Translations under genes and position numbers: made by a program
Part shown: in pieces, positions 22,718 to 46,557 of the stretch
Numbering within the stretch: the stretch's first letter is position 1
Layout of the letters: each line of letters starts with the position of its first letter
DNA from: Candidatus Omnitrophota bacterium
Lineage (GTDB): Bacteria > Omnitrophota > Gorgyraeia > JABMRN01 > RBG-13-46-9
NCBI GenBank assembly: GCA_013203315.1
Contig: JABMQJ010000007.1
Location: forward strand, 3,270-67,269
DNA length: 64,000 nt
Reading direction: 5' to 3'
The notes under the pieces: model-generated
What the model was told of the DNA's origin: nothing
The model's database searches: none
Seen by the model: the letters and a program-made list of their open reading frames with translations, nothing else

Positions 22718-22718
22718 A

Positions 22719-29634: not shown

Positions 29635-30615
29635 TTACTCCTTTGCGGATGAAATAGCTTCTTCTTCACCAAACAAACTAAATAGCCCTAGCGGAATTAT
29701 AAACACATAAAAAGGTATGAGAATCCTTACCTCGCTTATGGCGCCTCCTCTTGAAAAACCGTAAAGCAAAAAAAGCGTCATGGGTATTAATGCCCTTTTC
29801 AGTATGCTGGGTTTCTTGCGAAAATTCATAAACGCCAAAAACCAATAAAAACCACATAAATATAATATAAAATAAAAATGATTATATGGGTTCGGCGATT
29901 CAAATATTTTTAATAACCCTGCCACATTAACCCGGAAATGGTGAAAATAGCCCGGTAAATCCCTGATACCGAAAATTGAAATGAGTATTGCCGAAGGAAT
30001 AAGCCATAGCAAAAAGTAAATTGCCGTCCTTCTTATTAGGACAAACCAATTTTCTTTTCCGATCTCGTTGAAGAAATAAATAAGAACAAGTGCTATCGAG
30101 GTTTCCCTGTTAAGTGAGGCCAACGGTATCAGAATAAACAAGTTCTTATGTTTCCCATCCCGAATCCACATTACTCCTAGGATAAACATTATGAGCTCCG
30201 GCATATCCGTAGGTACCGAATACCAGTTAGTAAGGGTTAAAGGCAAAGAGGCTATTAGTGACAGCGTCCCTATCATTGCCGTTTTCTGGCCAAACCATTT
30301 TCGTAGATACATATGAAAAAGCGCAAAAGCCAGAAAGTAAAAAAGGAATCTGAACAATGCATATGAGTATTCTAATGAGATATGCGAAACCTTATGAAAG
30401 AAATAGACCGTATAAGGAACTAATATGCGATGATTCATGGGAGGATTAAAGTCACCCTTCACAACACTCTCTAAGGCTTGGGTAGATCTCTCAAAAGTAA
30501 GCACCCTCCGATCAAAATCGATATATCCCATTACAAAGGTGAGAAAGAAATATATCAATAAAATCTTTACTAAATCCCTGTTATTTTCTAGGTATCTACG
30601 CATTTTGTTTAACAC
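29635..30615 (-). CDS. Polytopic membrane protein, unknown function (tandem paralog 1)
   Basis: About 9 TM helices. Shares YFFLTFV.GYIDFDRRV.TFE.ST..L......G......RILIPYTV and C-terminal NPYNH.YF.LYLCGFYW.LAFM motifs with the upstream neighbour. Confidence 0.45.
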   Translation of the reverse strand: MLNKMRRYLENNRDLVKILLIYFFLTFVMGYIDFDRRVLTFERSTQALESVVKGDFNPPMNHRILVPYTVYFFHKVSHISLEYSYALFRFLFYFLAFALFHMYLRKWFGQKTAMIGTLSLIASLPLTLTNWYSVPTDMPELIMFILGVMWIRDGKHKNLFILIPLASLNRETSIALVLIYFFNEIGKENWFVLIRRTAIYFLLWLIPSAILISIFGIRDLPGYFHHFRVNVAGLLKIFESPNPYNHFYFILYLCGFYWFLAFMNFRKKPSILKRALIPMTLFLLYGFSRGGAISEVRILIPFYVFIIPLGLFSLFGEEEAISSAKE

Positions 30616-31573
30616 GCTTTTTTCCTTCAGTGAAGAGACTCGATAATCCCAATGGTATCACAAAAACATAAAACGGCATAAATATTCTCGTCTCATTTAT
30701 AGCGCTGACTCTTATAAAAACATAAAGGAAGTAAAGTATCATAACAATAACGGACCTCTTTAGTAGCGGGTCTTTCTTATGAAAATCCATGAACGCCAGT
30801 ATCCAGTAGAAACCACATAAATAAAGCAGAAAATAATAGTGGTTGTACGGATTGGGATTCTTAAATACGTGCAGAAGCCCTGCTACGTTATGTTCCAAGG
30901 TGACAAAATTCGAAAACTTCTCAAAACCAACCATGGCAATCATGATGCCAAATGGTATTGCCCACAAAAGACCATATATAATAGTCCTCCTGATTAAAAT
31001 AAGTGGTTTTTCCCTGCCTATACCGTATAGAAAATAAAGCAGAACAAGCGCAAGCGTTGCTTCCTTGTTAAATGTCGCAATCGGTATTAATATATAAAGA
31101 AGTTTATATTGATTTTTTTTGATCCACATCATCCCAAGGATGAAGGCTATAAAGTTTGGCATATCGCTCGAGATACAATACCAGTTAGTGAGAAATAACG
31201 GCAAAGAGGCAATCACCGATAACGTACCGATCATGGCACGCTTATCGTCAAACCACATTTTGAGATATATGTGAAAAAGGATAAAGGCCAGCAAAAAGAA
31301 AATGAACCTAAAAAACGCATAACTGTATGTGAGCGGTATGTGCGTTACCTTGTGAAAAAGATCTACCGTATAGGGAATCAAAATACGCCGCCCAAGAGGA
31401 GCACCAACTTCTCCGGTAATTATGTTCTTTAACTTCTCGGTAGATTGTTCAAACGTAAACACCCGCCGGTCAAAATCTATGTACCCTATTACAAAAGTAA
31501 GGAAAAAATATACCATGAAAATCTTGAGCGTGGTTTTATTATTGTGGGAATATTCGCGTATACGGTTTAACAT
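30596..31573 (-). CDS. Polytopic membrane protein, unknown function (tandem paralog 2)
   Basis: Collinear with 29635..30615 along its whole length, overlapping it by 20 nt. Confidence 0.45.
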   Translation of the reverse strand: MLNRIREYSHNNKTTLKIFMVYFFLTFVIGYIDFDRRVFTFEQSTEKLKNIITGEVGAPLGRRILIPYTVDLFHKVTHIPLTYSYAFFRFIFFLLAFILFHIYLKMWFDDKRAMIGTLSVIASLPLFLTNWYCISSDMPNFIAFILGMMWIKKNQYKLLYILIPIATFNKEATLALVLLYFLYGIGREKPLILIRRTIIYGLLWAIPFGIMIAMVGFEKFSNFVTLEHNVAGLLHVFKNPNPYNHYYFLLYLCGFYWILAFMDFHKKDPLLKRSVIVMILYFLYVFIRVSAINETRIFMPFYVFVIPLGLSSLFTEGKKRVKQNA

Positions 31574-32856
31574 GACATCACTTCTTTTGCTTCGTTACCA
31601 AGCTTAATACGCCAAACCCATGCCGCTGCGGCCAAAAATGATAAGAATAGCGCCCGCGCCAGAACTTTATACACTATCTCGATATTTACGAAACGGCCCA
31701 CGATCTCCTGGATAGTGGGTAAGCTTGAAAAATATACCGGATTAAGCGGGGCGAACAAGCCCAATTGCAGGTCTCTCTGATACAACCACTGGAATCCTAG
31801 CATTGCTATTATCGCAAACACCAATATACCAAACTTCTTATAGTACGGGATGATCAAGGCTAAAAGTGGTGTTATAAAAATGAAATATCTGAATCGTATC
31901 GGTAATGCCGCATAACTTATAAACATCACGGTTATGAAATAGTATAAAAGTTTTCCGGCCGGGTTTGTTTGGCGGGAGTCTTTTACGGCGTTTATGCAAA
32001 GCAAAGAAAACAAAACCATAAATATACCTCTTAGTACCCATTTTGTGATGCCGGAGTATTGTACGTGTGACAACATAAAAATACCAAAAACCGCATCTCC
32101 GGAAGATAGATAAAACGGCACATATGGTAAGATTGCAGCTACAGTCGCTACCAACAGAAGTAAAAATCTTTTTCGCCAATTATCGCCTAAAAGTAGACAC
32201 GCGGGCAATATCAAAATATACGGGAATAATACCGTACCCCCGCCCAAGCCTAAAAGAATAACGCAAAAAAACGGCTTTTTCTTCCAGGCCGCATATAAGG
32301 CAGCTGCTATAAAAAACGTAGGGATTAAATACGCGCCGCCTACCATATATACGCTATGTAAAACTACGATGTTAAGCATCCAGAGTTTATAGGTATCTAT
32401 TGCAAATTTTTGTGACGTTGCTAATTTGAGCAAAATTCCGCCTATCAAAAAATCGAAAATAAGATATGGGATCTTCATTATAAATAAATTCTTAACTAGT
32501 CCGAGATTTGCAAAGGCGTGTACATAATCAACTGTAGTAAAATGCTTCCCCATCATTGTACCCGAAAGCTCTAACATCGCGATAAGCGAAGCGGGATTAG
32601 ACAATTTTATAATTATAAAGTCTGTGATAGACATGATGAAAAATAAAACGGGACCGTAGTATGTAAAATTAAAATGTGAAAAATTGGTAGCGATCAAAGC
32701 ATATGGATCCCAAATACCCTCTGTTATGAACTTCATCGGGAAATAATTTAAAAAGAGTAGATCCTGGCCATGCATGGTAAACGGTACTAAGGTTAGCCTG
32801 AGCGACAAACCGATGCATGTCCATAAAGCGATCTGTATGTAGTATTTTTTTACCAT
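31567..32856 (-). CDS. Polytopic membrane protein, unknown function (candidate GT-C / Wzy-like)
   Basis: 429 aa, at least 10 hydrophobic helices, no soluble domain. Confidence 0.35.
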   Translation of the reverse strand: MVKKYYIQIALWTCIGLSLRLTLVPFTMHGQDLLFLNYFPMKFITEGIWDPYALIATNFSHFNFTYYGPVLFFIMSITDFIIIKLSNPASLIAMLELSGTMMGKHFTTVDYVHAFANLGLVKNLFIMKIPYLIFDFLIGGILLKLATSQKFAIDTYKLWMLNIVVLHSVYMVGGAYLIPTFFIAAALYAAWKKKPFFCVILLGLGGGTVLFPYILILPACLLLGDNWRKRFLLLLVATVAAILPYVPFYLSSGDAVFGIFMLSHVQYSGITKWVLRGIFMVLFSLLCINAVKDSRQTNPAGKLLYYFITVMFISYAALPIRFRYFIFITPLLALIIPYYKKFGILVFAIIAMLGFQWLYQRDLQLGLFAPLNPVYFSSLPTIQEIVGRFVNIEIVYKVLARALFLSFLAAAAWVWRIKLGNEAKEVMSC

Positions 32857-32866: not shown

Positions 32867-34711
32867 TTAAAAGTCTTTAATCAATTTTCTTACGCGCTCC
32901 CGGCATTTGCCGTCAAGCTTGTAGACAAAATCGTTAACAAAATCCTTCCTTGCTAATTCCATGCTTTTCTTTACTTCCTTGTCATGCAGGGCCTTTTCAA
33001 TGGCATTTTTTATGTCGTCGCCCTTGTAAACGCCAAGGGCTACCCCGTTTTCCGTAAAAGGCAGCAAGCTCGGTCTTTTGCCTAAATTAATCGCAACAAC
33101 CGGTTTTTGCATAATCACTGCCTCGAGCCCCACTGTCGAATCAGGCGTCATTACTACGTCTGATGCCGCTATTAGCTTATGTAAATTTGTTTTGTGGACA
33201 AAGATTACGTAGTTCTTATCTTCTTTCTTAAATAACTCCATAAAAGCGCGGATATTCTGGTTTGGATGAAGCTTAACAACCAAATTCATCTCACCGATTG
33301 ATTTGACTGCTTTAATAGCGTGTTTTATCAGATTATAAGATACATCATCGGTTTCAAAAGAGGAAAACCTATGCACTTCCGTACAAGGTGTTATAAGCGT
33401 CGAAAGATATTTCTTTCTGCTAAGTTTAAGCGCGTTCTGAATGTACTTATTTTTGTCGAGACGCATGGGTTTGGTTAGTGCGTCAAAGCTCGGGTTTCCT
33501 ATTGCTTCGGTTTTAGAGGGGCCGTTGTCAAATTTTTCGTACCAAGATACGGCACGATTTCCCCATACCGCAATCTTATCTGCGAGAATAACATTGTGTC
33601 CATTGGGTTCGGCAAGTATGCCGTGTTGAATAACCAGCGTCGGAATGTCGTTTTTCTTTGATACCGATACAAGGGTTTTTTCAAGTTCTCTTATGTCATT
33701 CCTAAGTATAGTAGCCTTTATATTATAGGCGTTCTCGACCATAAGAAAAGTGTCGATATTTCTTCTGAATCTTACAAAGTCATGGAATATTAAAGTTATT
33801 ATTTTATCCTCTACCAACGCCCAGTAATTTACGCCGTCCAAAAAAAACAGTTTTGCCAGAGACTGAGTGTCAAAATCTTTAAACTCCACCGGTGGAACCG
33901 CTAATCTTTTTCGTTCTGATTCACCCATGCGAAATGAAATATAGCCACGGTTTTTAAAAAGACACTTCAGCCTTAACCTCATCCCTTCTTCTATCGGGGC
34001 TAAAATGAACCCTTTCTTTTCCTTTATGCCAAGTTCGCCATACAACCTCGCATCAATAAGTTTTATCGGGCCTTTTTTTCTGATAAAATATCCCGCAAGT
34101 TTATCAAGGACATTTGAAATGGATTCGGATATTTGCATTTTTACAAAGTTTCTGACTGAACTTTGTTTTTGAATTTTGACAAGATCGGCCCGGATGTGAT
34201 AATGTGCGCTTAGGAAGCTATCAAAACCGTTAAGCTCGCCGGTTGAGTCCATGATAAAAAATGCCTTATAATTTTCTTTCTTCATCGCCCTTTCGAACAC
34301 CAGAGAGGCCTTTACCTTTAAAAGCAAAAACAGTTGAAGATCATAATCTGCAAATCTCGCCAATTCGACACCGCGATACGTGAATAATTCTCGGTATTCG
34401 CCAGAGACGGCCTTATCCCAGTTTTGCGAAACTTCATTGAAAACGTGATGGTCTATTCCGGTGTAATCTTCATCGGCTAGATAGTCTTCTGAAACCTTAA
34501 CATAATCCGAAAAACCGGCAAATTCTTCGGGGATACGTGCTTTGAAACATAAAATTTCCGTATTATTTCCGAAGTGATCCAAATTATCTTCTATTGCCGC
34601 GGCAAATTCGCCTATCTTGTCGAAGCCATTTATGACCAGGACCTTTTTTTGCGAAGAATTTTGCGCCAAAAATTTCTTTAGCTTACTTTTTAAAAATATT
34701 AAATCCTGCAT
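32867..34711 (-). CDS. Soluble GT-B-like transferase of the Capsule_synth (KpsS/KpsC) / TagF-like class: candidate nonulosonic-acid or glycerophosphate transferase
   Basis: C-terminal region VVKLHPNQN..LIAASDVVMTPDSTVGLEAVIMQKPVVAINL resembles the HP motif and donor-binding half of capsule Kdo-transferase/TagF-type enzymes. No TM segments. Confidence 0.4.
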   Translation of the reverse strand: MQDLIFLKSKLKKFLAQNSSQKKVLVINGFDKIGEFAAAIEDNLDHFGNNTEILCFKARIPEEFAGFSDYVKVSEDYLADEDYTGIDHHVFNEVSQNWDKAVSGEYRELFTYRGVELARFADYDLQLFLLLKVKASLVFERAMKKENYKAFFIMDSTGELNGFDSFLSAHYHIRADLVKIQKQSSVRNFVKMQISESISNVLDKLAGYFIRKKGPIKLIDARLYGELGIKEKKGFILAPIEEGMRLRLKCLFKNRGYISFRMGESERKRLAVPPVEFKDFDTQSLAKLFFLDGVNYWALVEDKIITLIFHDFVRFRRNIDTFLMVENAYNIKATILRNDIRELEKTLVSVSKKNDIPTLVIQHGILAEPNGHNVILADKIAVWGNRAVSWYEKFDNGPSKTEAIGNPSFDALTKPMRLDKNKYIQNALKLSRKKYLSTLITPCTEVHRFSSFETDDVSYNLIKHAIKAVKSIGEMNLVVKLHPNQNIRAFMELFKKEDKNYVIFVHKTNLHKLIAASDVVMTPDSTVGLEAVIMQKPVVAINLGKRPSLLPFTENGVALGVYKGDDIKNAIEKALHDKEVKKSMELARKDFVNDFVYKLDGKCRERVRKLIKDF

Positions 34712-36185
34712 TTTTTACCCGATTGTATAAATCCATTTTTTTATTTACATGCATCAAAAGCGGAAATGTCAGCGCTAAAAAAATGAGCATTTGCCATATC
34801 GCCCTTCCGATATCCGACGGCAAATCTTTGAAGCCACCGTAAAACATGCGGCCTACGACATAGAAAGCAAAAATGCTCCATATGATCGGCGCATTGAGGT
34901 TTATGAAAAAAGTTATTCTCTTATAGAGATTAGGTATGTGATATTTTACGGCGTATCCTATTGTAAAACTGCTGTATAAGAAATAGGTGACTGCTGTGCC
35001 AAGGGCTATTCCCCTGATCCCTAGATTAAATACCTTCACAAACAAGAGATTTAGCCCTGCGCTGATAGCAATACATAATACGCCAATTATCAGGATCAGG
35101 TGTTGTTTCTTCAGGGCAATTAAGAGATACCTTGACATGTACCCTATCGATATAAAAAAGGTGCCAAAGAGCAGTATCGACGCAGCCGTGATCCCATTTG
35201 TATATTTCGGCAGCACATAATTTACGAAAACAGGCATTGTTATTGCCGCTAATCCTATTATAACGGGGAATAAATACGCGAACGCGAGCGTTGGTTTTTC
35301 GACATAGTTCTTTATTTTGCTGACATCGTCTTTTGAGTCGCCAAAGGCTTCGTAAAAACGCGGAAACAAAACAACGTAAATCAAATTAGGTAGCTGAAAA
35401 AGGAAAGAGTGCACCATAATGGCAATGCTGTAATACCCCAGGTCGTTCTTCGTGAGAAGAGATAATATCATGATCCGATCTATGTTCCTTAGGGCCATAA
35501 AAGTAAAGCCTCCCAAGAATATAGGAAAGCCTATGGCTAAAAGCATTTTAAGGGTCTTGGCGGATATTTTAAACGTTATCCTGAACCGCACCTTAGTCTT
35601 TTTGAATAGATACAGAAGCCCCACCGTAAGGCTTAAGATCGTCGCCCAGAGGACTCCTATTACTCCGAATTTTATACCCAATAAGGCCTTAAAAAGAACA
35701 TCACATAGGGCCAGGATAATAATGTATTTGCTCAGAACCCCGAACAAGTGGTGGGTCCGAGCCAGGGTAACGTAAAAAGTATTCATGGACTGTATAACCA
35801 CCAGTGCGGCAATTACCTTTATCCCGATAGACATCACCGGCGTTAGCGTGTTCCTGAAAACGTAGGATATAACCAGTATAATTAAAGCTGAAGCGAGCGC
35901 GGTAAAAAGACCAAAGCTTATGCCCACATTTTTTGCTTCTTCCACCTTTTTGGTTTCTTTTTTTCCGTTATAATACGGTATTTGCCTATCCAGGGAATCG
36001 TATATACCCACGTGGCTATATTTGGCGTACTCAAAGATCAGCAATAATTCCAGATACACGCCCATAAAAAAAGAATCCAGCACCTTGCGGACAATGGTTG
36101 CGCTTATAAATGAGCAAAAACTCGATATATAACCGCTTATGCTAAATCTGGTTGCGTCTTTTAATATCTCTTTGGATTTACTCAA
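34683..36185 (-). CDS. MOP-superfamily polysaccharide flippase (Wzx-like)
   Basis: 500 aa, about 12-14 TM helices, Polysacc_synt-like arrangement. Confidence 0.6.
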   Translation of the reverse strand: MSKSKEILKDATRFSISGYISSFCSFISATIVRKVLDSFFMGVYLELLLIFEYAKYSHVGIYDSLDRQIPYYNGKKETKKVEEAKNVGISFGLFTALASALIILVISYVFRNTLTPVMSIGIKVIAALVVIQSMNTFYVTLARTHHLFGVLSKYIIILALCDVLFKALLGIKFGVIGVLWATILSLTVGLLYLFKKTKVRFRITFKISAKTLKMLLAIGFPIFLGGFTFMALRNIDRIMILSLLTKNDLGYYSIAIMVHSFLFQLPNLIYVVLFPRFYEAFGDSKDDVSKIKNYVEKPTLAFAYLFPVIIGLAAITMPVFVNYVLPKYTNGITAASILLFGTFFISIGYMSRYLLIALKKQHLILIIGVLCIAISAGLNLLFVKVFNLGIRGIALGTAVTYFLYSSFTIGYAVKYHIPNLYKRITFFINLNAPIIWSIFAFYVVGRMFYGGFKDLPSDIGRAIWQMLIFLALTFPLLMHVNKKMDLYNRVKNAGFNIFKK

Positions 36186-37608
36186 CGCCTATTTTCTCCT
36201 TCACCTTGCCTAATGACCAGCCAAAGGTCTTCATTGCGCCCTCGGCTTTTATTCGTTTTTTAAGGTCTTCGAATATCCTTTTTGATTCTTCGGTCGCAAT
36301 TTCAATCCTGGAACGCAGGCTAAAGTTTTCTCTTATTTTCGCTTCCGCTCTTTCTTTCAAACTCTTAAGCTCCTTATCGGACATCGTGGTTAAATTCACC
36401 AGAAGCGTGTTATACATCTCGCCTAGCGAGCTTACATATTTATTTTCGTCATCCGGTATTTTCCGCATTTCTTTCGCCATCTCATAAAGCGGGGTATTGG
36501 GATAAGGCGTTGTGTAGAAAAACCGGTGAAGCGTTAGGCCCGTTCTTTTTATAAACTCTACGGTTTCATTAACACTTTCCTCGGTTTCGCCGATCATTCC
36601 TATCATGAAAGAGCCCTCTATGCCGATACCCGCTTTTCTTGTAAATTCCACCGCTTTTTCCGCCTGTTCTACTCTTACCCCTTTCTTTATGCTATCCAGC
36701 ATTCTTTGGCTCCCCGACTCAAATCCATAGCTTAAAGCCTCGCAGCCCGCTTTTTTCATCTTTTTAAGTAAGTTCAGATCCACCAGATTTACTCTTGCTG
36801 AAGCGCCCCAGCCGATTTTAAGTTTTTCTTTTATCAGGGCATCGCAAAACTCCTCTACCCAGGACCTGTCGATCGTAAAGAGGTCGTCGGTAAAGCCTAT
36901 GAACTCTATATTATAACACCGTTTAAGCTCTTTTATTTCGGCGACAATGCTTGCCGGTGAGCGTTTATATACACGGGGACCAAAGGGCCTGGAGCAATAG
37001 ATGCATTGAAACGGGCACCCCCGCACCGTGGAGATATTCATGCTTCTTCTACCGTATTCAGTGTGGATCGGATTATTAATATAAGTTTCCATTTGAAAAA
37101 GATCCCAAGCCGGAAAGGGAATTCTGTCCAGGTCTTTTATTCTCTCTCTGGGAGCCGTAGAGACAATCCGATTTCCTTTCTTAAAAACTATTCCTTTGAC
37201 GCTATCTATTTCAGGAAAATCTTTTATTCTTTGCATTAGCTCTCTTATTGTTTCTTCGCCCTCGTCAATCACGCATATATCAATCTGTGAATGACGCAGC
37301 AATAACTCCGGAGATGAGGTTGAAACCATGTTGCCCGCGATCATCATGACATTCGGTTTTACTTTTTTTGCAATGTTGGAAAACTTTTTTACAAAGTCAT
37401 AAGTTGTAGTTAACCCACCGATACCTATGGCATCACAATCTACTGTTTCAAGCTCCCTCTCAATGGCTTCGTATGGCTTCTTGCTCACGTTGAAATCCAT
37501 TAAAGACACGTTGTGACCTTCCTGCCTCAGCACGCTTGCGACATATCCCAGTCCCAGAGGAATAAGGGAAGGCGTTCTGCACGGCGGATTAACCAAGAGA
37601 ATATGCAC
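36178..37608 (-). CDS. B12-binding domain radical SAM enzyme
   Basis: LIPLGLGYVASVLRQEGHNVSLMD N-terminus and TVRGCPFQCIYC motif. Confidence 0.75.
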   Translation of the reverse strand: MHILLVNPPCRTPSLIPLGLGYVASVLRQEGHNVSLMDFNVSKKPYEAIERELETVDCDAIGIGGLTTTYDFVKKFSNIAKKVKPNVMMIAGNMVSTSSPELLLRHSQIDICVIDEGEETIRELMQRIKDFPEIDSVKGIVFKKGNRIVSTAPRERIKDLDRIPFPAWDLFQMETYINNPIHTEYGRRSMNISTVRGCPFQCIYCSRPFGPRVYKRSPASIVAEIKELKRCYNIEFIGFTDDLFTIDRSWVEEFCDALIKEKLKIGWGASARVNLVDLNLLKKMKKAGCEALSYGFESGSQRMLDSIKKGVRVEQAEKAVEFTRKAGIGIEGSFMIGMIGETEESVNETVEFIKRTGLTLHRFFYTTPYPNTPLYEMAKEMRKIPDDENKYVSSLGEMYNTLLVNLTTMSDKELKSLKERAEAKIRENFSLRSRIEIATEESKRIFEDLKKRIKAEGAMKTFGWSLGKVKEKIGVE

Positions 37609-37621
37609 ATTTACCTCTTTT

Positions 37622-38638
37622 TCATTTAATCAAACTTAATTTAAGGGGACTGCCTTTTGCAATGGACTTCGTTGCTCTTTTGTTTAATATGGATTTTAAA
37701 TGCTTGGGCGGCAGCCCGAATCCGGGCCTGACAGACCTCACATTTTCGTGTGTAAAAATCTCTCCTTTTTTTATGCTTTTAGCTGCGAAGAGAGAGCGCC
37801 TGAAAATAAGATTCTTCTTTTCCTCTTCTGATAGACCGCTATGCGTATCCCCTATCGCCTCTTCAACGATCCTTATGTCATCTACGAGTTCTTTGAGTTC
37901 CTGCGGTTCGATAGAGAAAAAACTGTCCGGAGTTTTAATTTTTCGCGATAATGTAAAATGTTTCTCGATAACTTCCGCCCCGAGGGCAACGGCTGCTATT
38001 GACACGCCTATCCCCATCGTATGATCCGAAAGCCCCACAGGGCACTTAAATGTCTTTTTCATGCGCGAAATACCTTTTAAGTTCATTTGAGTCGGTTTGG
38101 CCGGATAGCTACTTACGCATTTCAGTAAAGTTATGTTCTTTGCGCCCGCGGATTTGGCTGTTCGGACAGCGTCATTTATCTCTGAATCGGTTGCCAATCC
38201 GGTCGATAGGATGAGGGGTTTTTTTGTTCTGGCCGCATGTTCAACAAGAGGCAAATCCACTAATTCAAAGGAAGCGACCTTGTGAATGGGCACATTGAGT
38301 TCCTCTAAAAAATCAACACTTGTTTTATCAAACGCTGTCGAAAAAAATAGTATATCTTCTTCCTCGGCAACTTTTTTTAGTTTTTTAAACCAGCTCCATG
38401 GCGTATATGCCTTCTTATATAATTGATACAGCGTTCGCTTGCCCCATTTGGGGTGTTTTACCTGGAAGTACTTGTTGTCTACATTTAGGGTTAGCGTATT
38501 GGCTGTGTAGGTTTGAAATTTTATCGCGTCGGCACCGCATGCTTTTGCTTTTCTTATCATGGAAACAGCTTTTTTAAAATCCTGGCCGTGGTTGGCCGAA
38601 ACCTCCGCAATAATAAAAACTCTTTTGGATTTAGGCAT
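37622..38638 (-). CDS. pseI: Pseudaminic acid synthase (NeuB family)
   Basis: VFIIAEVSANHGQD..AKACGADAIKFQTYT..LKCVSSYP..GLSDHT..EKHFTL, plus a C-terminal SAF domain (RSLFAAKSIKKGEIFTHENVRSVRP). Collinear with Campylobacter PseI. Confidence 0.8.
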   Translation of the reverse strand: MPKSKRVFIIAEVSANHGQDFKKAVSMIRKAKACGADAIKFQTYTANTLTLNVDNKYFQVKHPKWGKRTLYQLYKKAYTPWSWFKKLKKVAEEEDILFFSTAFDKTSVDFLEELNVPIHKVASFELVDLPLVEHAARTKKPLILSTGLATDSEINDAVRTAKSAGAKNITLLKCVSSYPAKPTQMNLKGISRMKKTFKCPVGLSDHTMGIGVSIAAVALGAEVIEKHFTLSRKIKTPDSFFSIEPQELKELVDDIRIVEEAIGDTHSGLSEEEKKNLIFRRSLFAAKSIKKGEIFTHENVRSVRPGFGLPPKHLKSILNKRATKSIAKGSPLKLSLIK

Positions 38639-38639
38639 T

Positions 38640-40106
38640 TTATTTTCCTCTTGCGTAAAACTTTGTTTTATATCGATTAATTTTAATGTTCTTCTGAAAA
38701 TTAAACCCGGCCTTTTTGAAAGCTCTTATGGAAGGTATATTTTTTTCTCTTATATATGCGTTTATGCTGTTTATGTCCGGCCTCTCGGCAAAAAAAGTAT
38801 TTACGGCTATATTCAAAATATATGAAGAAAGATTCAAGCCGCGTGCGCTCTTTACCAGGCTAAAACTGATTGCGGCTTCATTTTTTGGTTTGTCAATATC
38901 AAATCTTATTTGACCATAAAATTGGTTTGAAACGGAAATTATAAAAAGTACGCAATCTTTATCTTTCATTCTTTTCTTCATCCATCCAAGATGATGGTCC
39001 CAGCTTATTATTTTAGGATCAAAGGAACCTTCCCTGACCCTTCTTTCGTTAAATAAGTTAAGTATATCTCGCGCATCTTGAATGCGGGCTTTCCGTAACG
39101 AAAGATTGTTTTCAAACCACTGCGATAAAATTGCCTTTACAGCCGTTTGGCTGCCGCTGCCGCCTATAAGAAGTTTGGCTATTTTCGATCTTTGTTTTCT
39201 TACTTTTACGCTTTTAAATCTTTCTATCGATCTTTTAACTCTTTTTTTAAGATTTCCATCATTGAACCGGCCTGCGTATTCCAGAAAACCGGCCTTTTCC
39301 CAACCCTTGGCGTTCTTAAGTTGATTTTTCGCGACACATACGCCTATTGTCGGAATACCAACACGCGCGAGCTCATAAAGAGTTTGCCCCGCAGCGGAAA
39401 TCGCTATGTCTGATCTTATCATTATTCTTTTCATCTTTTCTGAACTCGGATTATGGATAAATTTTGTTTTCGAATCTTTCAAACTATCTATTTTTTCTAT
39501 GCTCCGAAACCCTCCGCCTATGACCACAAGTTTCCTGAATTGTGGGTACTCATTTTTTAACAAATTAAGTATAAGCGGGGTCATTTGTCTTTTATCGTCT
39601 CCTCCAAAAGTAACCAATACGCGGTTTACAGCTTTCTTTATTTTTATATTCGGCATATTCCAAAATTCTCTTCGTATGAGGGTGTAGTTTGTTCCGAGAA
39701 GATATGAAATCTCTCTATCTTTGGCATAATTAAGCGTCGTAGCGTACACAGATCCATTAAGAACAACCCCCTTGTCATACTTTAGTCTATTATTGTCATC
39801 GACATAAACAGCAAGGTCAACATTGTTAGAAATTTCCTTATAGAATCTCTCATCACACATGTAGGAATCTACAATACAAATTGCAGATCCCCGAACGGTC
39901 TCAAGAAGCCTCTTTTTCTCTTTTAACCAATCAAAAATAAAGTATTTTCTTTTCCCGAGAATATTGCATACGCTTTTATCGCCGTTTATTATAAATACAG
40001 GGCTGATGCTGCGTTCCTCAAAGGCCTGAGAAAGAGAAACACACCTTGCTAAATGACCGAAGCCCACATTCTTACCACCCTCTGTTATTATGAAAACTTT
40101 TCTCAT
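38640..40106 (-). CDS. Fusion protein: PseG-like UDP-sugar hydrolase (N-terminal) plus GNAT N-acetyltransferase PseH-like (C-terminal)
   Basis: N-terminus KVFIITEGGKNVGFGHLARCVSL matches the PseG GFGH signature and MurG-like fold order. The C-terminal ~160 aa have GNAT-like motifs. Confidence 0.65.
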   Translation of the reverse strand: MRKVFIITEGGKNVGFGHLARCVSLSQAFEERSISPVFIINGDKSVCNILGKRKYFIFDWLKEKKRLLETVRGSAICIVDSYMCDERFYKEISNNVDLAVYVDDNNRLKYDKGVVLNGSVYATTLNYAKDREISYLLGTNYTLIRREFWNMPNIKIKKAVNRVLVTFGGDDKRQMTPLILNLLKNEYPQFRKLVVIGGGFRSIEKIDSLKDSKTKFIHNPSSEKMKRIMIRSDIAISAAGQTLYELARVGIPTIGVCVAKNQLKNAKGWEKAGFLEYAGRFNDGNLKKRVKRSIERFKSVKVRKQRSKIAKLLIGGSGSQTAVKAILSQWFENNLSLRKARIQDARDILNLFNERRVREGSFDPKIISWDHHLGWMKKRMKDKDCVLFIISVSNQFYGQIRFDIDKPKNEAAISFSLVKSARGLNLSSYILNIAVNTFFAERPDINSINAYIREKNIPSIRAFKKAGFNFQKNIKINRYKTKFYARGK

Positions 40107-40843
40107 ATTTTCTTTTGAATCACTTTATTGTTTAGCGATTTAAGCCACGGATTTTCGCGTAATGTCTTGACCACATCAAAAGCTGTAAATTTAGCCTTCT
40201 TTTTAAAAAGAAGGCTAAATATCGCATTGATGAATGAGTAATCCTCTTTGGTATCAAGCACAAGCCTTATATCCGGGCCGTAAAGCTCCCGCGGTGCTTT
40301 AACTTGAGTAATCTTAAAAGCCTTTGGCCTTTTGTAAATATAAGGAGTTACATGCTCTTTTTCACTTGGTTTCTTGGCATTTTTATACGCCTTTTCAAGG
40401 ACGCTAAAGTTAAAAACTTCGGTATCAAATCCGCGGGGATAGCTTCTCGTGAGTGTGTTTGAAGTATAATCGGACTTTGACTTTATGTGCCTGGTGATTA
40501 TTGAATCTACTATCTCCGGATCTATGCATGGGCAATCGCTACAAATTCTCACTATCACATCCAGTTCGTTTTCCTTTGCGCAAAAATAATACCGGGACAA
40601 AACATTCTCTTCGCTCCCCCTAAAAAGGGTAACCTTTTCTTTTTTTGCGACATTAGCGATTTCATCACTATCCTTTTTATTGACTGTCGCGACTATAATT
40701 TCGTCTAATCGCTTTGATTTTTTCAGTCTTCTTGTGACATGTTCGAGCACTGTAATGCCGCTTCCGGCAGGGACCTCTTTCAAGACCTTACCCGGAAGTC
40801 TGGTCGAAGAAAATCTCGCCTGTACTATAGCGCCTACCTTCAC
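40103..40843 (-). CDS. Acylneuraminate cytidylyltransferase-family enzyme (PseF/SpsF-like CMP-sugar synthetase)
   Basis: N-terminal AIVQARFSSTRLPGK nucleotidyltransferase motif. 246 aa. Confidence 0.6.
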   Translation of the reverse strand: MKVGAIVQARFSSTRLPGKVLKEVPAGSGITVLEHVTRRLKKSKRLDEIIVATVNKKDSDEIANVAKKEKVTLFRGSEENVLSRYYFCAKENELDVIVRICSDCPCIDPEIVDSIITRHIKSKSDYTSNTLTRSYPRGFDTEVFNFSVLEKAYKNAKKPSEKEHVTPYIYKRPKAFKITQVKAPRELYGPDIRLVLDTKEDYSFINAIFSLLFKKKAKFTAFDVVKTLRENPWLKSLNNKVIQKKI

Positions 40844-40902
40844 CTTGGCGTTCTCCTTTAAAGCCTAACGTTTATAAGGCATTTCTTTGTCAATTACATG
40901 AA

Positions 40903-42108
40903 TTAACGACGGCTACTCTTTTCATACGCTGCCTTAACAACGTTGTCATCGTTTATTCTTGTGAGGTTACCGGACTTATCCTTTAGGAGGCTTCCTCTTG
41001 AATCGCAAACAAAAAGTTTTTTGTTCGTAAAACGGTCGCAAATCTTTGTAAATTCCTCTATAGTCATGTCCATCTCTCCCAGTATCTCCTCAAGGGAATA
41101 CCCCAGATAGGTCCAGGGGAATTTACCGTCAAGCCTTTTTACCGCATCAAGCCCTTCTTCCCTCGTAAGACGCCCCCGACGTATGTTCAAAGATGCGTAG
41201 TCCGTTACTCGTCCAAAACCAAATTTCAAAAATTTGAAATAGTCGTGTATGCGCATCTGGCAATTATCGAGATTCTCGTAGTTTACGAGGTTGCCTTCTA
41301 CATTTTTGGGATATGTCTCAAGGCCGTGCGCCTGTGCTACCAGCGCGTTGCTATAGCTGTCCCATGGCGTATAATGACCCAAGAAAAGCCCTGTAACGCC
41401 CACGCGCTTTAGTTCTTCATCTTTGGGATAGGTAAACTGGATGAGATGCTTTGCTTCAATTCCATCTTTCCCTATTAAATCGGACACTTTCAAGCCCAAT
41501 AAGCCGCCGAATTTCTCAAGCCACGGCCGGTCCAAAACGTTATTTTCGGCTGCCGCTGCCGGGCCGCCATACTCGTTTTGGGAGTTCTCTCCCCATATGA
41601 TCAATGGGACATTGAACTGCACTGCTATCCTAACGGGAATCGTAAATATGGTCAAATGTTCCGGCCACGAAATATCGCCTACTTCGGACATGGCGAAGCG
41701 GTTGATCTTTCTCCTGACCACACGATTTGTGGTAACTTCGATATAGTCGACGCCTAGTTTTTTTAAATTCTCGATATTGCGCCGCCCTATGTCAGATAGC
41801 TTACAGGTTGTAGCCGTAACACATAAAGGATTCATTCCTAATTCCAACATTTTTAGGGTCTGAAAGTGGCTATCCTTACCTCCGCTAACCGGAATAATGC
41901 AATCATAGTTACTGTTATTTTTTGAGCGGTAGCGATCGAGTATTTTTACCAACTCCTCTTTCCGCTTGTTCCAGTCTATGCTTTTTCTCTCTGTGAATGA
42001 GCGGCATGCGTTACAAACCCCTTCTTCATCAATATAAAGATCCGGTCTCGTTTCAGGCATAACACAGCGTTTGCAATATTTTATGCTTTTCTCCGTCATA
42101 CAGTACAA
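40903..42108 (-). CDS. N-acetyl sugar amidotransferase (PseA/WbpG family, PP-loop ATP pyrophosphatase)
   Basis: N-terminal Cys4 (CKRCV..CNAC), then PP-loop IIPVSGGKDSHFQ. Confidence 0.7.
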   Translation of the reverse strand: MYCMTEKSIKYCKRCVMPETRPDLYIDEEGVCNACRSFTERKSIDWNKRKEELVKILDRYRSKNNSNYDCIIPVSGGKDSHFQTLKMLELGMNPLCVTATTCKLSDIGRRNIENLKKLGVDYIEVTTNRVVRRKINRFAMSEVGDISWPEHLTIFTIPVRIAVQFNVPLIIWGENSQNEYGGPAAAAENNVLDRPWLEKFGGLLGLKVSDLIGKDGIEAKHLIQFTYPKDEELKRVGVTGLFLGHYTPWDSYSNALVAQAHGLETYPKNVEGNLVNYENLDNCQMRIHDYFKFLKFGFGRVTDYASLNIRRGRLTREEGLDAVKRLDGKFPWTYLGYSLEEILGEMDMTIEEFTKICDRFTNKKLFVCDSRGSLLKDKSGNLTRINDDNVVKAAYEKSSRR

Positions 42109-43118
42109 CTCTCCTTTTCCGTTCGTGTTTCTTTTTTGTTAATTTGTAAACTTTTTTTAATTAATGCTTCCATCTCTTTTCCTGTTAACCATTCGGGATT
42201 ATTGTTGCTCGCGTATCGAAAACCGTCCTTTAGCTTCTTGCCGCCCTTAAAGTTATCATCTGACCACCAGTGAAATTCCGGTTCAATTACAAAGAAATCG
42301 CTAAATTCTTTCGCGTGTCTTGCCTCATCTTCGGTAACCAGAACCTCGTCTATTTTTTCGCCGGGCCTTATGCCTATCTCTTTAATCCTGCAACCCTTAA
42401 CCATTAATTTCGCCAAATCTACGACCTTCATGCTAGGAATTTTAGGCACAAATATCTCTCCTCCCTGCATGAGATCTACGGACTTTACTACAAATTCAAC
42501 GCCTTTTTCCAGAGTGATCCAGAATCTTGTCATGCGCTTGTCAGTAACCGTAACGGTGCCTTTTTTTTCCTGCTCTTTAAACTTATGCACGACGCTCCCA
42601 CGGCTTCCTATTACGTTCCCATATCGGGCGCAACTAAATCTTGTACCGCTTTTGCCGGAATAGGAATTGCCCTGGATGAATATTTTCTCCGCGCACAATT
42701 TCGTCGCCCCGTACAGATTAATTGGGTTTACGGCTTTGTCGGTACTGATCGCCATTACCTTTTTGACGCCGGCATTTATTGCAGTATCTATTATGTTTTG
42801 CGCGCCTAAAATATTTGTCTTTACGGCTTCGAAGGGATTGTACTCACAGGCTGGAACCTGCTTTAGCGCGGCGGCATGAACTACCAGGTCCACACCCTGC
42901 ATGGCCCTTTCGAGCCTCTCTTTATCGCGAACATCGCCTATAAAAAATCTTACGGGCCCTTTATTCCCGTAACGGTGTTCCATTTCGGACTGCTTGAGCT
43001 CATCCCGGCTATACACCCTTATAACCTTAGGCTTATACTTTTTTAACATGATCTCGATAAATTTCTTTCCGAATGAACCGGTTCCGCCCGTAACAAGAAT
43101 TGTCTCGTTATTTAACAT
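42096..43118 (-). CDS. pseB: UDP-N-acetylglucosamine 4,6-dehydratase (inverting), PseB/FlaA1-like
   Basis: ILVTGGTGSFGKKFIE N-terminus, short-chain dehydratase with YGATKLCAEK catalytic motif. About 340 aa, as for PseB. Confidence 0.8.
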   Translation of the reverse strand: MLNNETILVTGGTGSFGKKFIEIMLKKYKPKVIRVYSRDELKQSEMEHRYGNKGPVRFFIGDVRDKERLERAMQGVDLVVHAAALKQVPACEYNPFEAVKTNILGAQNIIDTAINAGVKKVMAISTDKAVNPINLYGATKLCAEKIFIQGNSYSGKSGTRFSCARYGNVIGSRGSVVHKFKEQEKKGTVTVTDKRMTRFWITLEKGVEFVVKSVDLMQGGEIFVPKIPSMKVVDLAKLMVKGCRIKEIGIRPGEKIDEVLVTEDEARHAKEFSDFFVIEPEFHWWSDDNFKGGKKLKDGFRYASNNNPEWLTGKEMEALIKKSLQINKKETRTEKESCTV

Positions 43119-43127
43119 TGTATCCTC

Positions 43128-43487
43128 CTAGACTATGTTCTCTGTCTTTTTGTTTTCTTGTGTTTTCGCCGTGTACTTCTCATACTCTTCTTTTAATCTT
43201 CTATACTCTTTTTCCTTTGCTTTCAAAAAATAGAATGTGAGCGTCATCTTCTCCTCAATACCTTTTTGAGTAAGAATATACTTTAGTTTTTTGCTTTTTT
43301 CGGGATTCTTGGAAAACGCACCCATCATGATCATGCCCTTTTTGACAAGCTCTTTTAAAAGATAATTGGTTTTTCCCAGGGAAATGTTGAGCTTCTGGGA
43401 AAGGAGGCGCTGGTTTAAGGATGGATCATCCTCCAGTTCCCTTATAAGGCGGAGTGTCTCTTCTTTAGAAAAGCTATGTTCATTCAT
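43128..43487 (-). CDS. Small winged-helix regulator (MarR-like, EPS-locus-associated type)
   Basis: 119 aa. LNQRLLSQKLNISLGKTNYLLKELVKKGMI helix-turn-helix-like segment. Lysine/glutamate-rich C-terminal tail. Confidence 0.45.
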   Translation of the reverse strand: MNEHSFSKEETLRLIRELEDDPSLNQRLLSQKLNISLGKTNYLLKELVKKGMIMMGAFSKNPEKSKKLKYILTQKGIEEKMTLTFYFLKAKEKEYRRLKEEYEKYTAKTQENKKTENIV

Positions 43488-43495
43488 TGAACATC

Positions 43496-43524
43496 ATTGT
43501 ATACTCTGACGTGTTCTAAGTCAA
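43496..43524 (-). promoter_or_regulatory. Sigma70-like promoter (TTGACT-17 nt-TACAAT) placing the predicted transcription start 1-2 nt upstream of the regulator ATG (leaderless mRNA)
   Basis: Minus-strand reading: TTGACT (43524..43519), 17-nt spacer, TACAAT (43501..43496). ATG at 43487. No Shine-Dalgarno. Located in the only sizeable (132 bp) gap of the long array. Confidence 0.35.
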
Positions 43525-43619
43525 CAGAAAAGTAGTATCAGCGGGGTGAGGGGCAGTAATCAGATAGCGTCTCTTTTCCGTAATCGCTTAACTTGCCGTT
43601 CATACATTTTTATCTTCGG

Positions 43620-44714
43620 CTAAACTTTTTTAATCGTGGCTACGATATAATCTTTTTCTTCTTTTGTCAATTCGGGGTAAACGGGAATTGCGAAACTTTC
43701 TTTGGATAGTTTCTCCGATTCCGGAAAATCACCCGGTTTGTGTCCCAAGGATTTGAAGCATTCCTGCAAGTGTAACGGCAGAGGATAATACGTTCGCGAT
43801 TCTATTCCGCTATCAAGGAGATGCTTAACGATTTTTCCCGCATCTTTGCTTCTTAGAACGTACTGATGATAGGAATGTCGATAGCCCTCGGGAACGTGGG
43901 GCGTTGTAATAGAACATCCTGCAAGATTCTTGTTAAAGAATGCGGCATTCTCGATCCTTTGATCTATCCATTTATCCAAATAAGTAAGTTTTATGTTCAG
44001 AACGGCTGCCTGAAGATTGTCGAGACGGCTATTGTATCCTACAATTTTGTGATAATAACTTTTTTCCGAGCCGTGGTTTCTAAGTAGCTTGACTTTCTTG
44101 TACAGAGCCTCCTCGTTGGTTACCACCATACCGCCGTCACCGAAGCAACCCAGGTTTTTGCCCGGATAGAAGCTTATAGCTCCTGCTACTCCTAAACTAC
44201 CGGCCTTTTTCCCTTTATACGTAGAGCCTATTGCCTGCGCGCAGTCTTCGAGCACCGGGAGCTTGTGTTTCTTCGCAATGCTTGAAATAGGGTCCATGTC
44301 CGCGCATAAACCATACAAGTGGACCGGCACTATGGCCTTGGTCTTCTCGGTTATCTTTGCTTCTACGAGGCCCGGATCTATATTGTAAGTTTTAGGGTCT
44401 ATATCGACAAAAACCGGTTTCCCTCCCACCAGGGAAATAGCTTCCACTGTAGCTACAAACGTAAAAGGCGTAGTAATTACTTCGTCACCCTTGCAAATGC
44501 CCATAGCATTTAAAGCCAATATCAGTGCGTCTGTGCCGGAATTTACACCTATCGCATATTGTGTGTTACAATATTCGGAAATATTTTTTTCGATCAGGGA
44601 AACCTCTTCCCCTAACACAAATGACTGATTGTCGCATATCTTTGATATACGTGCTTCTATTTCTTTTTTTAGCCCCTTGTACTGTTTCTTTAAGTCAAGT
44701 ATAGGTATTTTCAT
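43620..44714 (-). CDS. pseC: DegT-family aminotransferase, PseC-like (UDP-4-keto-6-deoxy-hexosamine 4-aminotransferase)
   Basis: Fold-type I PLP enzyme immediately upstream of pseB in the Pse block. Confidence 0.7.
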
Positions 44715-45643
44715 AGTTCTCCAATATGTTCAATGGTTTTTGTTAATCCTTTTTTCAAGTCTATCTTTGGCTTCCATTTAAGTTTAGATTTAGCGAGCGT
44801 TATATTCGGCCTTCTTACTTTAGGGTCGTCTATAGGCAGTGGTTTATGAATAATTTTGCTTTTACTTTTTGTGAGTTTGATTATAAGGCGTGCCAACTGC
44901 ATGATAGAGAATTCGCGGGGATTTCCTATGTTAACTGGATAATTTATATTTGATTTCAGCAATTTGTAAATTCCTTCTATCAAATCGCTTACATAACAAA
45001 AGCTCCTGGTTTGAGTGCCGTTTCCGTATACGGTTATGGGACTACCCTTAAGGGCTTGATCCAGGAAATTCGGTATTGCCCTGCCGTCACGCTTTCGCAT
45101 CCTTTCACCGTAAGTGTTAAAAATACGGATTATTCTCGTATCTACATTGTGAGCGTTATGATATGCCATTGTTATCGCTTCGGCGAATCTTTTCGCTTCG
45201 TCATAGACACCGCGCGGGCCAACAGGATTAACGTTGCCCCAATACGACTCTTTCTGCGGGTGAACAAGAGGGTCTCCATAGATTTCACTCGTAGAGGCAA
45301 GCATGAATTTGGCCTTTTTTGCTTTGGCTACTCCCAGGGCATTATGTGTACCGAGAGAACCCACTTTTAAAGTTTTTATGGGATACTTCAGATAGTCAAT
45401 GGGGCTCGCCGGAGAAGCGAAATGTAAAACATAATTTATGCCGCCTTTTATCTCGATGCGCTTCGATACATCGTGCTTTACGAATCTAAAATTCTTGTGT
45501 TTCAGGAGGTGTTCAATGTTGCCCTTGGAACCGGTTATCAAATTATCCATGCAGATAACAGAGTAGCCTTCTTTTATAAAAAAATCACATAAATGCGAAC
45601 CGATGAAACCCGCTCCGCCGGTTATTAATATTCTTTTTTTCAT
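44711..45643 (-). CDS. uxs: UDP-glucuronate decarboxylase (UDP-xylose synthase)
   Basis: [47 protein letters not shown] collinear with UXS enzymes. YDEAKR catalytic motif. Confidence 0.8.
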
Positions 45644-45645: not shown

Positions 45646-46557
45646 TTATTGATCCCCCTTTAACATTGTTCTTAATCCATGTTCAAAACCAATGGGCTTG
45701 AAACTCAATTCACCCTGGGCAGAGCCGATGTCCGCCAGTTTATCCTGGTCTATGCTTAAAATTTGCTGACTATGAGTTCGCAGAAAACGGTTAATTTTCC
45801 CTAAAACCAGGCACAGCCTTTTAACCGGGGCTATGGGTAAATGAACTATCATCCTTTTTTTACCCAATACCCTTAGGATAGTCTGTACAATCTCGTTCAT
45901 GGTCAATGCAGAAGGTCCGGCTATGTCATAAATCTTTCCGGTAGTTCCTTCAAGCTCTATACATTTTTTTATGGCATAGATTAAATCGCCTACATATACG
46001 GGTTGCCGCTTGTAATACCCGTCTCCGAATATGGGCACTAAAGGTGAATGTCCTATAAACTTTATGAGAGAAGATATGTGTTTGTCGTCGGACTGGCCGT
46101 ATACAACGGTTGACCTTAAGATCGTATAATTTAAAGAGCTTTCCTTTAGTTTTTTTTCGGCGGCCAATTTGGTACCGCCATACAAAGAATGCGGTACCAG
46201 TTCTGCATCAATTGAGCTTACATAAACAAACTTTTCTATATTCGCGCCCAACGATACATCTATCATGTTTGACATGCCGCGAACATTTACGTCTTCGAAT
46301 TCAGCCTTATTCTTAGAATTTATTACAGAGGCCAGGTGTATGCAAAAATTTGCATTGCCGATTGCATTTTCCAGTGAGTCTCTATCCTGCAGATCGCCCA
46401 GAACTGTGGTTATGTTCTTTGACTTCCACAAATCCTTATGTCTGTCACGGCGAACAAGGCATCGAACGTGAGAGCCCTCTTTTGCGAGCTTGTCTACCAA
46501 ATGCCTCCCGATAAAACCGCCGGCTCCGGTTACAAAGTAGATATTATTTTTTTTCAT
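45646..46557 (-). CDS. NAD(P)-dependent epimerase/dehydratase-family SDR (nucleotide-sugar reductase/epimerase, specificity unknown)
   Basis: [15 protein letters not shown] Rossmann motif and [10 protein letters not shown] catalytic YxxxK. Confidence 0.6.

Follow-up and report, generated by a model that had tools for sequence, protein, structure and literature searches.

A candidate cassette for synthesis and transfer of a pseudaminic acid-type nonulosonate in a surface-polysaccharide locus of Candidatus Omnitrophota

A 64,000-nt stretch of a Candidatus Omnitrophota contig, hereafter the window, carries a block of genes that resembles the pathway to cytidine monophosphate (CMP)-activated pseudaminic acid (Pse). 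It raises the question whether this block makes and transfers a Pse-type nonulosonic acid, and with which enzymes. NCBIfam scores of the encoded proteins were judged by the curated cutoffs, with Pfam domain scores used beside them, and the block was compared with other homologue-bearing stretches, designated by locus numbers such as L004 (CP070780.1, 197329..219194) and L090 (Thermodesulfatator indicus DSM 15286, CP002683.1). We consider it fairly probable that the interval at 32.9-43.5 kb is a self-contained cassette for biosynthesis and transfer of a Pse-type nonulosonate, enclosed by a Wzx-dependent, O-antigen-like glycan locus. The window forms a single huge surface-polysaccharide locus of more than 50 kb, in which all genes between about 16.4 and 64 kb lie on the minus strand, and the gene order of the block recurs on independent metagenome contigs. 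All open reading frames (ORFs) named in the initial annotation were found on the minus strand with exact coordinates, and window coordinates below refer to this strand unless marked (+).

Core enzymes and the PseG-GNAT fusion

The canonical CMP-Pse pathway of Campylobacter jejuni and Helicobacter pylori (PseB, PseC, PseH, PseG, PseI and PseF, with PseA for the acetamidino form) served as the reference. As in that pathway, the window encodes PseB, PseG, PseI and a PseA/WbuX-type enzyme, all scoring above the thresholds of their families, together with a GNAT and a cytidylyltransferase that would fill the PseH and PseF roles, so that the presence of a Pse-type module, as initially proposed, was confirmed. 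PseB (42096..43118), the inverting uridine diphosphate (UDP)-N-acetylglucosamine (UDP-GlcNAc) 4,6-dehydratase, reached 502.6 bits with TIGR03589 (cutoff 407.75) compared to 245 bits with FnlA (cutoff 730). The pseudaminic acid synthase PseI (37622..38638) reached 468 bits with TIGR03586 (cutoff 340.25), while its 338 bits with NeuB_NnaB remained below the cutoff of 399.65. Both assignments had been made in the initial annotation and held. Since the synthase passed the PseI model and failed that of NeuB, it groups with PseI, and a role as legionaminic acid (Leg) or neuraminic acid synthase was ruled out. The PseA/WbpG-type amidotransferase was likewise recovered, as ORF 40903..42108 belongs to the WbuX/WbpG/PseA family of N-acetyl-sugar amidotransferases (acetamido to acetamidino; TIGR03573, 349.8 bits, cutoff 203.2, match spanning residues 10-357). 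Its orthologue in L005 (48% identical) is followed by HisH/HisF-like genes; unlike in the canonical pathway, no such amidotransferase partners were found within the window.

ORF 40103..40843 had been described as a PseF-like cytidylyltransferase, a description that stands with respect to its type and not with respect to the PseF family. The protein is a cytidylyltransferase (PF02348, CTP_transf_3, 109.6 bits) and shares 54-56% identity with its counterpart in the canonical clusters L006 and L090, each of which has a single cytidylyltransferase. Among the NCBIfam models no PseF match was obtained at E<=1e-3, the best scores being those of KdsB subfamilies (at most 57.5 bits), and its best relative in the PDB is the uncharacterised "Cytidylyltransferase" 6oew (150 bits). 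The PseF model was also missed by the scanned cytidylyltransferases of L004, L005 and L006. Because the same type of cytidylyltransferase is found in canonical clusters, we infer from gene context that this ORF, from a CTP_transf_3 subgroup other than that of the reference pathway, is a CMP-nonulosonate synthetase, not a PseF equivalog.

The 488-residue product of ORF 38640..40106 combines PseG (residues 1 to about 327) with an acetyltransferase of the GNAT type (residues about 335-488), as had been proposed. Residues 3-267 scored 164.6 bits with TIGR03590 (cutoff 153.55), and on profile search the C-terminal half proved to be a GNAT (Acetyltransf_3, residues 335-469, 45.8 bits, cutoff 25.4). 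An AlphaFold2 model of residues 320-488 alone had a predicted local distance difference test (pLDDT) score of 95.6 and a template modeling score of about 0.8 to SpeG, RimL, AAC(6')-Ib and MccE. For H. pylori PseH, the reported nearest relatives in structure are RimL and MccE (PMC4363471). PseH itself was absent from the top 50 Foldseek matches of this domain, in which the RimL/MccE subgroup alone appeared. Judged by the predicted structure, the C-terminal half truly is a GNAT and belongs to the RimL/MccE/PseH structural subgroup. It retains 10 invariant residues as well as a serine at the catalytic position, and it is 42-43% identical to its orthologues in the canonical clusters L006 and L090, in which they are the only acetyltransferases. 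The loop that binds the pyrophosphate of coenzyme A (CoA) reads R-G-L-G-L-G/S in most homologues, RGLNFS in the closest homologue (P0021) and RGLKLA in P0022; outside this loop the fusion of the window keeps the invariant residues. The stand-alone PseG of L004 aligns to residues 1-327 of the fusion, which places the domain junction at about residues 327-335.

A PDB sequence search with the whole fusion returned no significant match. An assembly or frameshift artefact was ruled out, as the identical 488-residue ORF recurs on 7 contigs that stem from several samples, and homologues of this length number in the hundreds. Among the candidates scored, at least 632 protein clusters were homologous to the fusion at E<=1e-10; of the best 120, nearly all were full-length fusions of about 487-500 residues. 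They originated from Methanobacterium, Ignavibacteriales, Euryarchaeota and the cultured T. indicus DSM 15286, and one already has a "bifunctional ..." name at NCBI. Gene clusters of the order PseB-PseC-cytidylyltransferase-PseG/GNAT-PseI were present in L006, in T. indicus (CP002683.1) and in many Methanobacterium and other metagenome-assembled genomes. The T. indicus cluster (PseB-DegT-cytidylyltransferase-PseG/GNAT-PseI-Maf-flagellin) shares the fusion architecture with the window (42% identity, about 487-489 residues), as well as PseI, PseB and a cytidylyltransferase that is 54% identical. Unlike the window, these clusters carry a true PseC adjoining PseB, and that of T. indicus serves flagellin glycosylation via Maf. 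The PseG-GNAT fusion is thus real but common, and the initial view of it as notable is not borne out, given hundreds of clusters, its presence in the flagellin-glycosylation cluster of a cultured bacterium and an existing NCBI name. Further differences from the canonical pathway are this fusion itself, the lack of a PseC-clade aminotransferase in the window, and the company of the module, which includes MarR, a B12-binding radical SAM enzyme, Wzx and a glycan transferase candidate, not Maf and flagellin genes.

The aminotransferase upstream of the module

The pathway had initially been called complete, with the DegT-family aminotransferase encoded by ORF 43620..44714 in the position of PseC. 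Completeness is not established, since no PseC was identifiable among the three DegT aminotransferases of the window. PseC is formally the top NCBIfam match of ORF 43620..44714, but its 248.8 bits with TIGR03588 lie 175 bits under the cutoff of 423.5, compared to 532.4 for the genuine PseC that adjoins PseB in L006. Among themselves, the PseC-type proteins of L006, L090, L007 and L009 showed 47-66% identity in an all-against-all comparison, whereas the three DegT proteins of the window were only 31-36% identical to them (35% for ORF 43620..44714). Among solved structures the closest relatives of this ORF are 7b0d (378 bits), QdtB (348), DesV (297) and WbpE (293), with H. pylori PseC at 125 bits. 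QdtB, DesV and WbpE are C-3 aminotransferases; a literature search on 7B0D with aminotransferase found no report.

The other two DegT proteins scored 188.3 (23702..24970) and 328.9 bits (7020..8144) with TIGR03588. The former is grouped with a GFO oxidoreductase, a hexapeptide acetyltransferase and a 2-epimerase, the latter with an ArnA-type decarboxylase, a deacetylase and a GT2 glycosyltransferase. In spite of the best PseC score of the window, ORF 7020..8144 was rejected as PseC as a member of an ArnA/ArnB/ArnC/ArnD-like set. This set (3103..8144) is of the type for 4-amino-4-deoxyarabinose and consists of GT2, an ArnA-decarboxylase-like protein (NF008872, 529.5 bits, cutoff 294), a polysaccharide deacetylase and an ArnB-like aminotransferase. 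A PseC-clade aminotransferase was found neither in the 64-kb window nor in any of six Omnitrophota-type cassettes.

The neighborhood of ORF 43620..44714 points in the same direction. Its start overlaps by 4 bp the stop of ORF 44711..45643, a UDP-glucuronate decarboxylase (UXS)-like short-chain dehydrogenase/reductase that lies outside the Pse pathway (human UXS1, 4gll, 349.6 bits), and its closest orthologues (61-71% identical) are all preceded by a UXS orthologue (72-80%), immediately in L011, L029, L091 and L100 and at a distance of about 4 kb in L012. In L012 and L029, both from Planctomycetia, aminotransferase and UXS are present without Pse genes; in L012 the aminotransferase adjoins a GFO-type oxidoreductase and a hexapeptide acetyltransferase, forming a WbpB/D/E-type trio. 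A scan with one genome per species yielded 80 loci with relatives of the aminotransferase, 78 of which had no PseI-like match within 10 kb, and one of the other two matches was weak (27%).

Towards PseB, the ORF is set apart by a 132-bp gap with a promoter-like site and by ORF 43128..43487, the first gene of the Pse-type module, which encodes a MarR-family regulator associated with exopolysaccharide (EPS; MarR_EPS, TIGR04176, 97.3 bits, cutoff 88). A MarR homologue (64-75% identity) precedes module genes in L005, L091, L100 and L102, in the first three directly before PseB. The site upstream of the MarR gene (TTGACT-17-TACAAT, 43524..43496) is only suggestive of a promoter, as the promoter/terminator scan as a whole did not rise above shuffled sequence.

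Taken as sequence evidence, these findings suggest that ORF 43620..44714 more probably encodes a QdtB/WbpE-type enzyme serving a separate pathway linked to UXS. The assignment as PseC was not upheld for this protein, which falls outside the PseC clade and whose gene is translationally coupled to that of UXS, in a pair recurring without Pse genes. The association of UXS and aminotransferase in Omnitrophota and Planctomycetia may represent a route to an amino-pentose or a 3-amino sugar. We regard it as rather unlikely that the block is nevertheless a complete canonical pathway to CMP-Pse5Ac7Ac, or its 7-acetamidino form, in which ORF 43620..44714 acts as PseC, the C4 aminotransferase. It is the nearest aminotransferase, with only the MarR gene between it and PseB; its orthologue (66-71%) is also found upstream of (MarR-)PseB in L011/L004, L091 and L100, and in four related cassettes (MarR-)PseB is closely preceded by the UXS-aminotransferase pair. 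In addition, the orthology of the window's GNAT to those of canonical clusters implies a 4-amino intermediate. Besides the PseC score, the identity values, the C-3 relatives, the UXS overlap and the Planctomycetia loci described above, L102 speaks against this complete pathway, since it retains PseB (77%) and UXS without this aminotransferase.

A second pair consisting of a GFO/Idh/MocA oxidoreductase and a hexapeptide acetyltransferase (17139..18679) has no aminotransferase of its own and could be the partner of the one encoded by ORF 43620..44714.

A soluble GT-B protein beside the flippase

ORF 32867..34711 encodes a 614-residue protein without predicted transmembrane segment and adjoins the gene of a Wzx-type flippase (34683..36185; Polysacc_synt_3 and Polysacc_synt, about 10 hydrophobic segments). 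Its AlphaFold2 model (pLDDT 84.8, predicted template modeling score 0.84) has a GT-B fold. The best family match was NF046086, "BFO_1060 family glycosyltransferase", with 78.3 bits over residues 370-613 (cutoff 200). BFO_1060 is the 92A2 allele of Tannerella forsythia Tanf_01245 / TFUB4_00887, and knockouts of Tanf_01245 and TFUB4_00887 lose the terminal Pse or Leg derivative of the O-glycan, for which N-acetylmannosaminuronic acid (ManNAcA) is the acceptor (PMC5420450). The same family was best for 19/19 homologues recovered by a word-index search, all below the cutoff (best E 7.9e-29), and likewise for shorter relatives of 355-460 residues; KpsS was matched by five and NeuC by two of the 19.

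The strongest evidence for a transferase role is the genomic linkage to NeuB/PseI. A NeuB/PseI gene was located within 10 kb of the homologue in 9/11 loci, down to 22-30% identity; of the two exceptions, one is a contig that breaks off 6.8 kb downstream, past PseB-like and PseC-like genes, and the other a contig of 7 kb. The family is large, as an exhaustive phmmer search yielded 4758 representative clusters at E<=1e-3, of which 127 remained at E<=1e-30. Its conserved core spans residues 285-612, and the relatives are all named "hypothetical". Invariant positions of the family alignment are Q362-H363-G364, W383-G384, H482-P483 and S525, while the sole EEG triplet (residue 241) and the DXD triplets are not conserved among the homologues. 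No genes for cytidine diphosphate (CDP)-glycerol or CDP-ribitol synthesis were seen among the annotated ORFs of at least 150 residues in the window, so that the CMP-nonulosonate would be the only cytidine-activated donor encoded by these ORFs.

On the strength of this linkage and of the likeness to the Tannerella enzymes, the 614-residue protein is a probable nonulosonate (Pse-type) transferase that resembles these enzymes, not a demonstrated member of their family. Shared features are a soluble GT-B/TagB-like protein, the His-Pro motif, the position beside CMP-nonulosonate genes and a match in the C-terminal ~245 residues. Unlike the Tannerella transferases, the protein has 614 instead of about 445 residues, with about 280 extra at the N-terminus, and scores 78 bits against the cutoff of 200. 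Compared with the motifs published for the BFO_1060 family (HP, D/E-D/E-G and DXD; PMC5420450), QHG is conserved in place of D/E-D/E-G, and a conserved DXD was not observed in the alignment.

The initial annotation had suggested a pseudaminic acid transferase by analogy with KpsS-family proteins. Solubility, position beside Wzx and a credible role as nonulosonate transferase were confirmed, while the KpsS analogy was not, with 29 bits for KpsS (NF050054, cutoff 600) against 78.3 for BFO_1060. Further NCBIfam scores were 57.9 for TIGR04396 and 26 for wecB (TIGR00236, cutoff 210). With Pfam, Capsule_synth (PF05159) reached 29.7 bits (cutoff 20) over about 67 residues only, and Epimerase_2 (43.7) and Glyphos_transf (PF04464, 27.1) matched the C-terminal lobe only. 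Like KpsS/Capsule_synth (GT107) and TagF/TagB, the protein has a GT-B C-terminal lobe with a phosphate-binding His-Pro motif, and it matches their profiles weakly (27-30 bits). Unlike them, it scores far better with BFO_1060, and neither a 3-deoxy-D-manno-oct-2-ulosonic acid (Kdo) nor a CDP-glycerol pathway was seen in the locus. No TagF-type NCBIfam model was listed for the protein, and a scan for the PTWR-type motif of TagF (PT[WFY]R) found none anywhere in it. A PDB sequence search gave no significant match.

It is possible, though in our view doubtful, that the 614-residue protein belongs to some other type of GT-B enzyme, for example the TagF-like polyol-phosphate transferases, the ordinary glycosyltransferases or, in line with its NCBI name, the hydrolysing UDP-sugar 2-epimerases. 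The Epimerase_2 score, which exceeds its Pfam cutoff, the Glyphos_transf match and the specific family matches, all below cutoff, would fit such an enzyme, as would the top Foldseek matches (UDP-GlcNAc 2-epimerases, TarL and TagF). On the other hand, BFO_1060 outscores wecB, KpsS and Glyphos_transf and is the best family throughout the homologues, the PTWR motif is missing, CDP-polyol synthesis genes were not seen in the window ORFs, and the family is strongly linked to NeuB/PseI genes. The locus also already encodes PseG and a full-scoring 2-epimerase (354.9 bits). The NCBI name of the protein, "UDP-N-acetylglucosamine 2-epimerase", is probably a mis-annotation, as the underlying match covers the C-terminal lobe only. 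A close homologue is named "CDP-glycerol glycerophosphotransferase family protein".

With the 614-residue protein as the preferred transferase candidate, the cassette may be read as follows. PseB would convert UDP-GlcNAc to the 4-keto-6-deoxy-L-sugar, which would receive its 4-amino group from an aminotransferase that could not be identified within the cassette. Acetylation of the amine would fall to the GNAT half of the fusion and release of UDP to the PseG half, whereupon PseI would join the hexose with phosphoenolpyruvate to a Pse-type nonulosonic acid. The WbuX/PseA-type enzyme would turn one acetamido into an acetamidino group and the SpsF-like cytidylyltransferase would form the CMP-sugar. 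The 614-residue protein would then transfer the sugar residue at the cytoplasmic side to a lipid-linked glycan, with a ManNAc(3NAc)A-type residue from genes elsewhere in the locus as a possible acceptor, and the glycan would be flipped by Wzx.

Several findings weigh against this reading. Apart from the lack of a PseC-clade aminotransferase and the missing PseF match of the cytidylyltransferase, the GNAT half remained far under the PseH cutoff (TIGR03585, 34.7 bits, cutoff 93.1), and its CoA-pyrophosphate loop reads R-G-L-N-L-S, not RxxGxG/A. The 614-residue protein in turn lies under every specific family cutoff, and Foldseek with its model returned generic GT-B proteins only, including GT4 enzymes beside the top matches named above. 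The HP motif is common to several phosphate-binding GT-B clades and is not diagnostic.

Cassette variants, radical SAM chemistry and the wider locus

The order MarR-PseB-cytidylyltransferase-PseI/NeuB-(B12-radical SAM)-Wzx-~600-residue protein-429-residue membrane protein was recovered in L004, L005, L091, L100 and L102, with Wzx orthologues in L005, L091 and L102. The 429-residue polytopic membrane protein of the window (31567..32856, about 9 hydrophobic segments) had no Pfam or NCBIfam match. Its orthologues in L004, L005, L100 and L102 are 52-64% identical, and two orthologues carry a weak GT87 (GT-C) match, so that a GT-C enzyme or a polymerase is possible. Next to it, two paralogous membrane proteins, each of about 325 residues and without Pfam matches, are encoded in tandem (together 29635..32856), and all three are kept directly after the 614-residue protein gene in L004, L100 and L102.

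The tailoring genes of these cassettes vary. While the window has WbuX alone, L005 has WbuX and HisH/HisF-like genes. In L004 a stand-alone PseG is accompanied by an RmlD-like reductase, a carbamoyltransferase, an O-acetyltransferase-like protein and a methyltransferase, with neither GNAT nor PseC, and this cassette possibly makes a 7-hydroxy, O-carbamoylated nonulosonate. L091 encodes an aldo-keto reductase and a cytidylyltransferase-Aminotran_3 fusion, and L100 a cytidylyltransferase-methyltransferase fusion and two ~600-residue paralogues. Fusion of a nonulosonate cytidylyltransferase to a class-III aminotransferase domain was seen in L091 (7295..9361) and in L007 (8586..10604); the fusion to a methyltransferase domain in L100 (5564..7471) belongs to one of two cytidylyltransferases of this locus. 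A literature search on nonulosonic acids in Omnitrophota found no report.

The variation bears on another reading, in which the product of the cassette is a non-canonical, Pse-like nonulosonate that arises without the usual PseC step, for example a 7-hydroxy 9-deoxy acid, or one whose amine is provided by a borrowed or elsewhere-encoded aminotransferase. The block would then represent a variable "tailoring cassette" instead of a fixed pathway. With a PseC-clade gene in 0/6 Omnitrophota-type cassettes and tailoring genes that differ between L004, L091 and L100, this reading has support, but we consider it improbable. The conserved GNAT of the window fusion, with its invariant residues and catalytic serine, implies an amine substrate and is hard to explain without one. 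Moreover, the 64-kb window is only part of the genome, and PseC may lie elsewhere.

Two genes inside the block, the MarR_EPS regulator and ORF 36178..37608, had been omitted from the initial annotation. The latter, situated between PseI and Wzx, encodes a B12-binding radical SAM enzyme (PF02310, 74.1 bits; PF04055, 95.5 bits) that reached no NCBIfam equivalog, the best being BchE with 225 bits (cutoff 481). It is a conserved module accessory, with the gene kept in 4/6 related modules. Orthologues with 63-70% identity were detected in L004, L005 and L102 and are absent from L091 and L100; they are positioned between PseI or the cytidylyltransferase and Wzx or the homologue of the 614-residue protein. 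A metagenome scan with this protein recovered only relatives of 28-36% identity from GT2-rich loci without PseI and was uninformative on orthologues. We found no literature link between cobalamin radical SAM enzymes and pseudaminic acid. The enzyme probably adds a further modification and may act on the nonulosonate, for which C-methylation or another radical change would be a guess. The locus has six radical SAM genes, 14112..15665 (+), 25651..27045, 27042..28076, 36178..37608, 46544..48064 and 48105..49430. A B12-binding domain was detected in four, a fifth fits models of B12-type radical SAM enzymes over the core only and one is SPASM-type, which together suggests an unusually heavy radical chemistry on surface sugars.

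A bolder combination would have the ~600-residue GT-B family act as widespread, so far unrecognised CMP-nonulosonate transferases and the B12-radical SAM enzyme lead to a new Pse derivative, for example a C-alkylated one, in a cassette without PseC-clade aminotransferase, whose role would fall either to a QdtB/WbpE-like replacement or to a 7-hydroxy route. We hold it to be unlikely that all of these parts apply together.

Beyond the cassette, the window includes rmlA/B/D, two nucleotide-sugar dehydrogenases, a UXS-type decarboxylase and one LptD-like gene, and it is rich in GT2, GT4 and GT-C-like genes. A WbpB/E/D/I-like set (21027..24970), together with a nucleoside diphosphate-sugar dehydrogenase (51781..53106), predicts a sugar of the 2,3-diacetamido-2,3-dideoxymannuronic acid (ManNAc3NAcA) type, which is similar to ManNAcA, the acceptor used by the nonulosonate transferases of Tannerella.

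The current understanding of the Pse pathway is left unchanged by this locus, which is of interest for its unnamed transferase family, its missing PseC and its radical SAM accessory. For annotation, it illustrates that a DegT gene adjoining PseB is not automatically PseC and that PseG-GNAT fusions are ordinary. Glycans with Pse are of interest as antigens and for glyco-engineering and, to our knowledge, few pseudaminic or legionaminic acid transferases are known. The large unnamed GT-B family found beside NeuB/PseI therefore offers concrete transferase candidates, and the locus as a whole indicates that members of the candidate phylum Omnitrophota encode elaborate surface glycans with many radical SAM enzymes.

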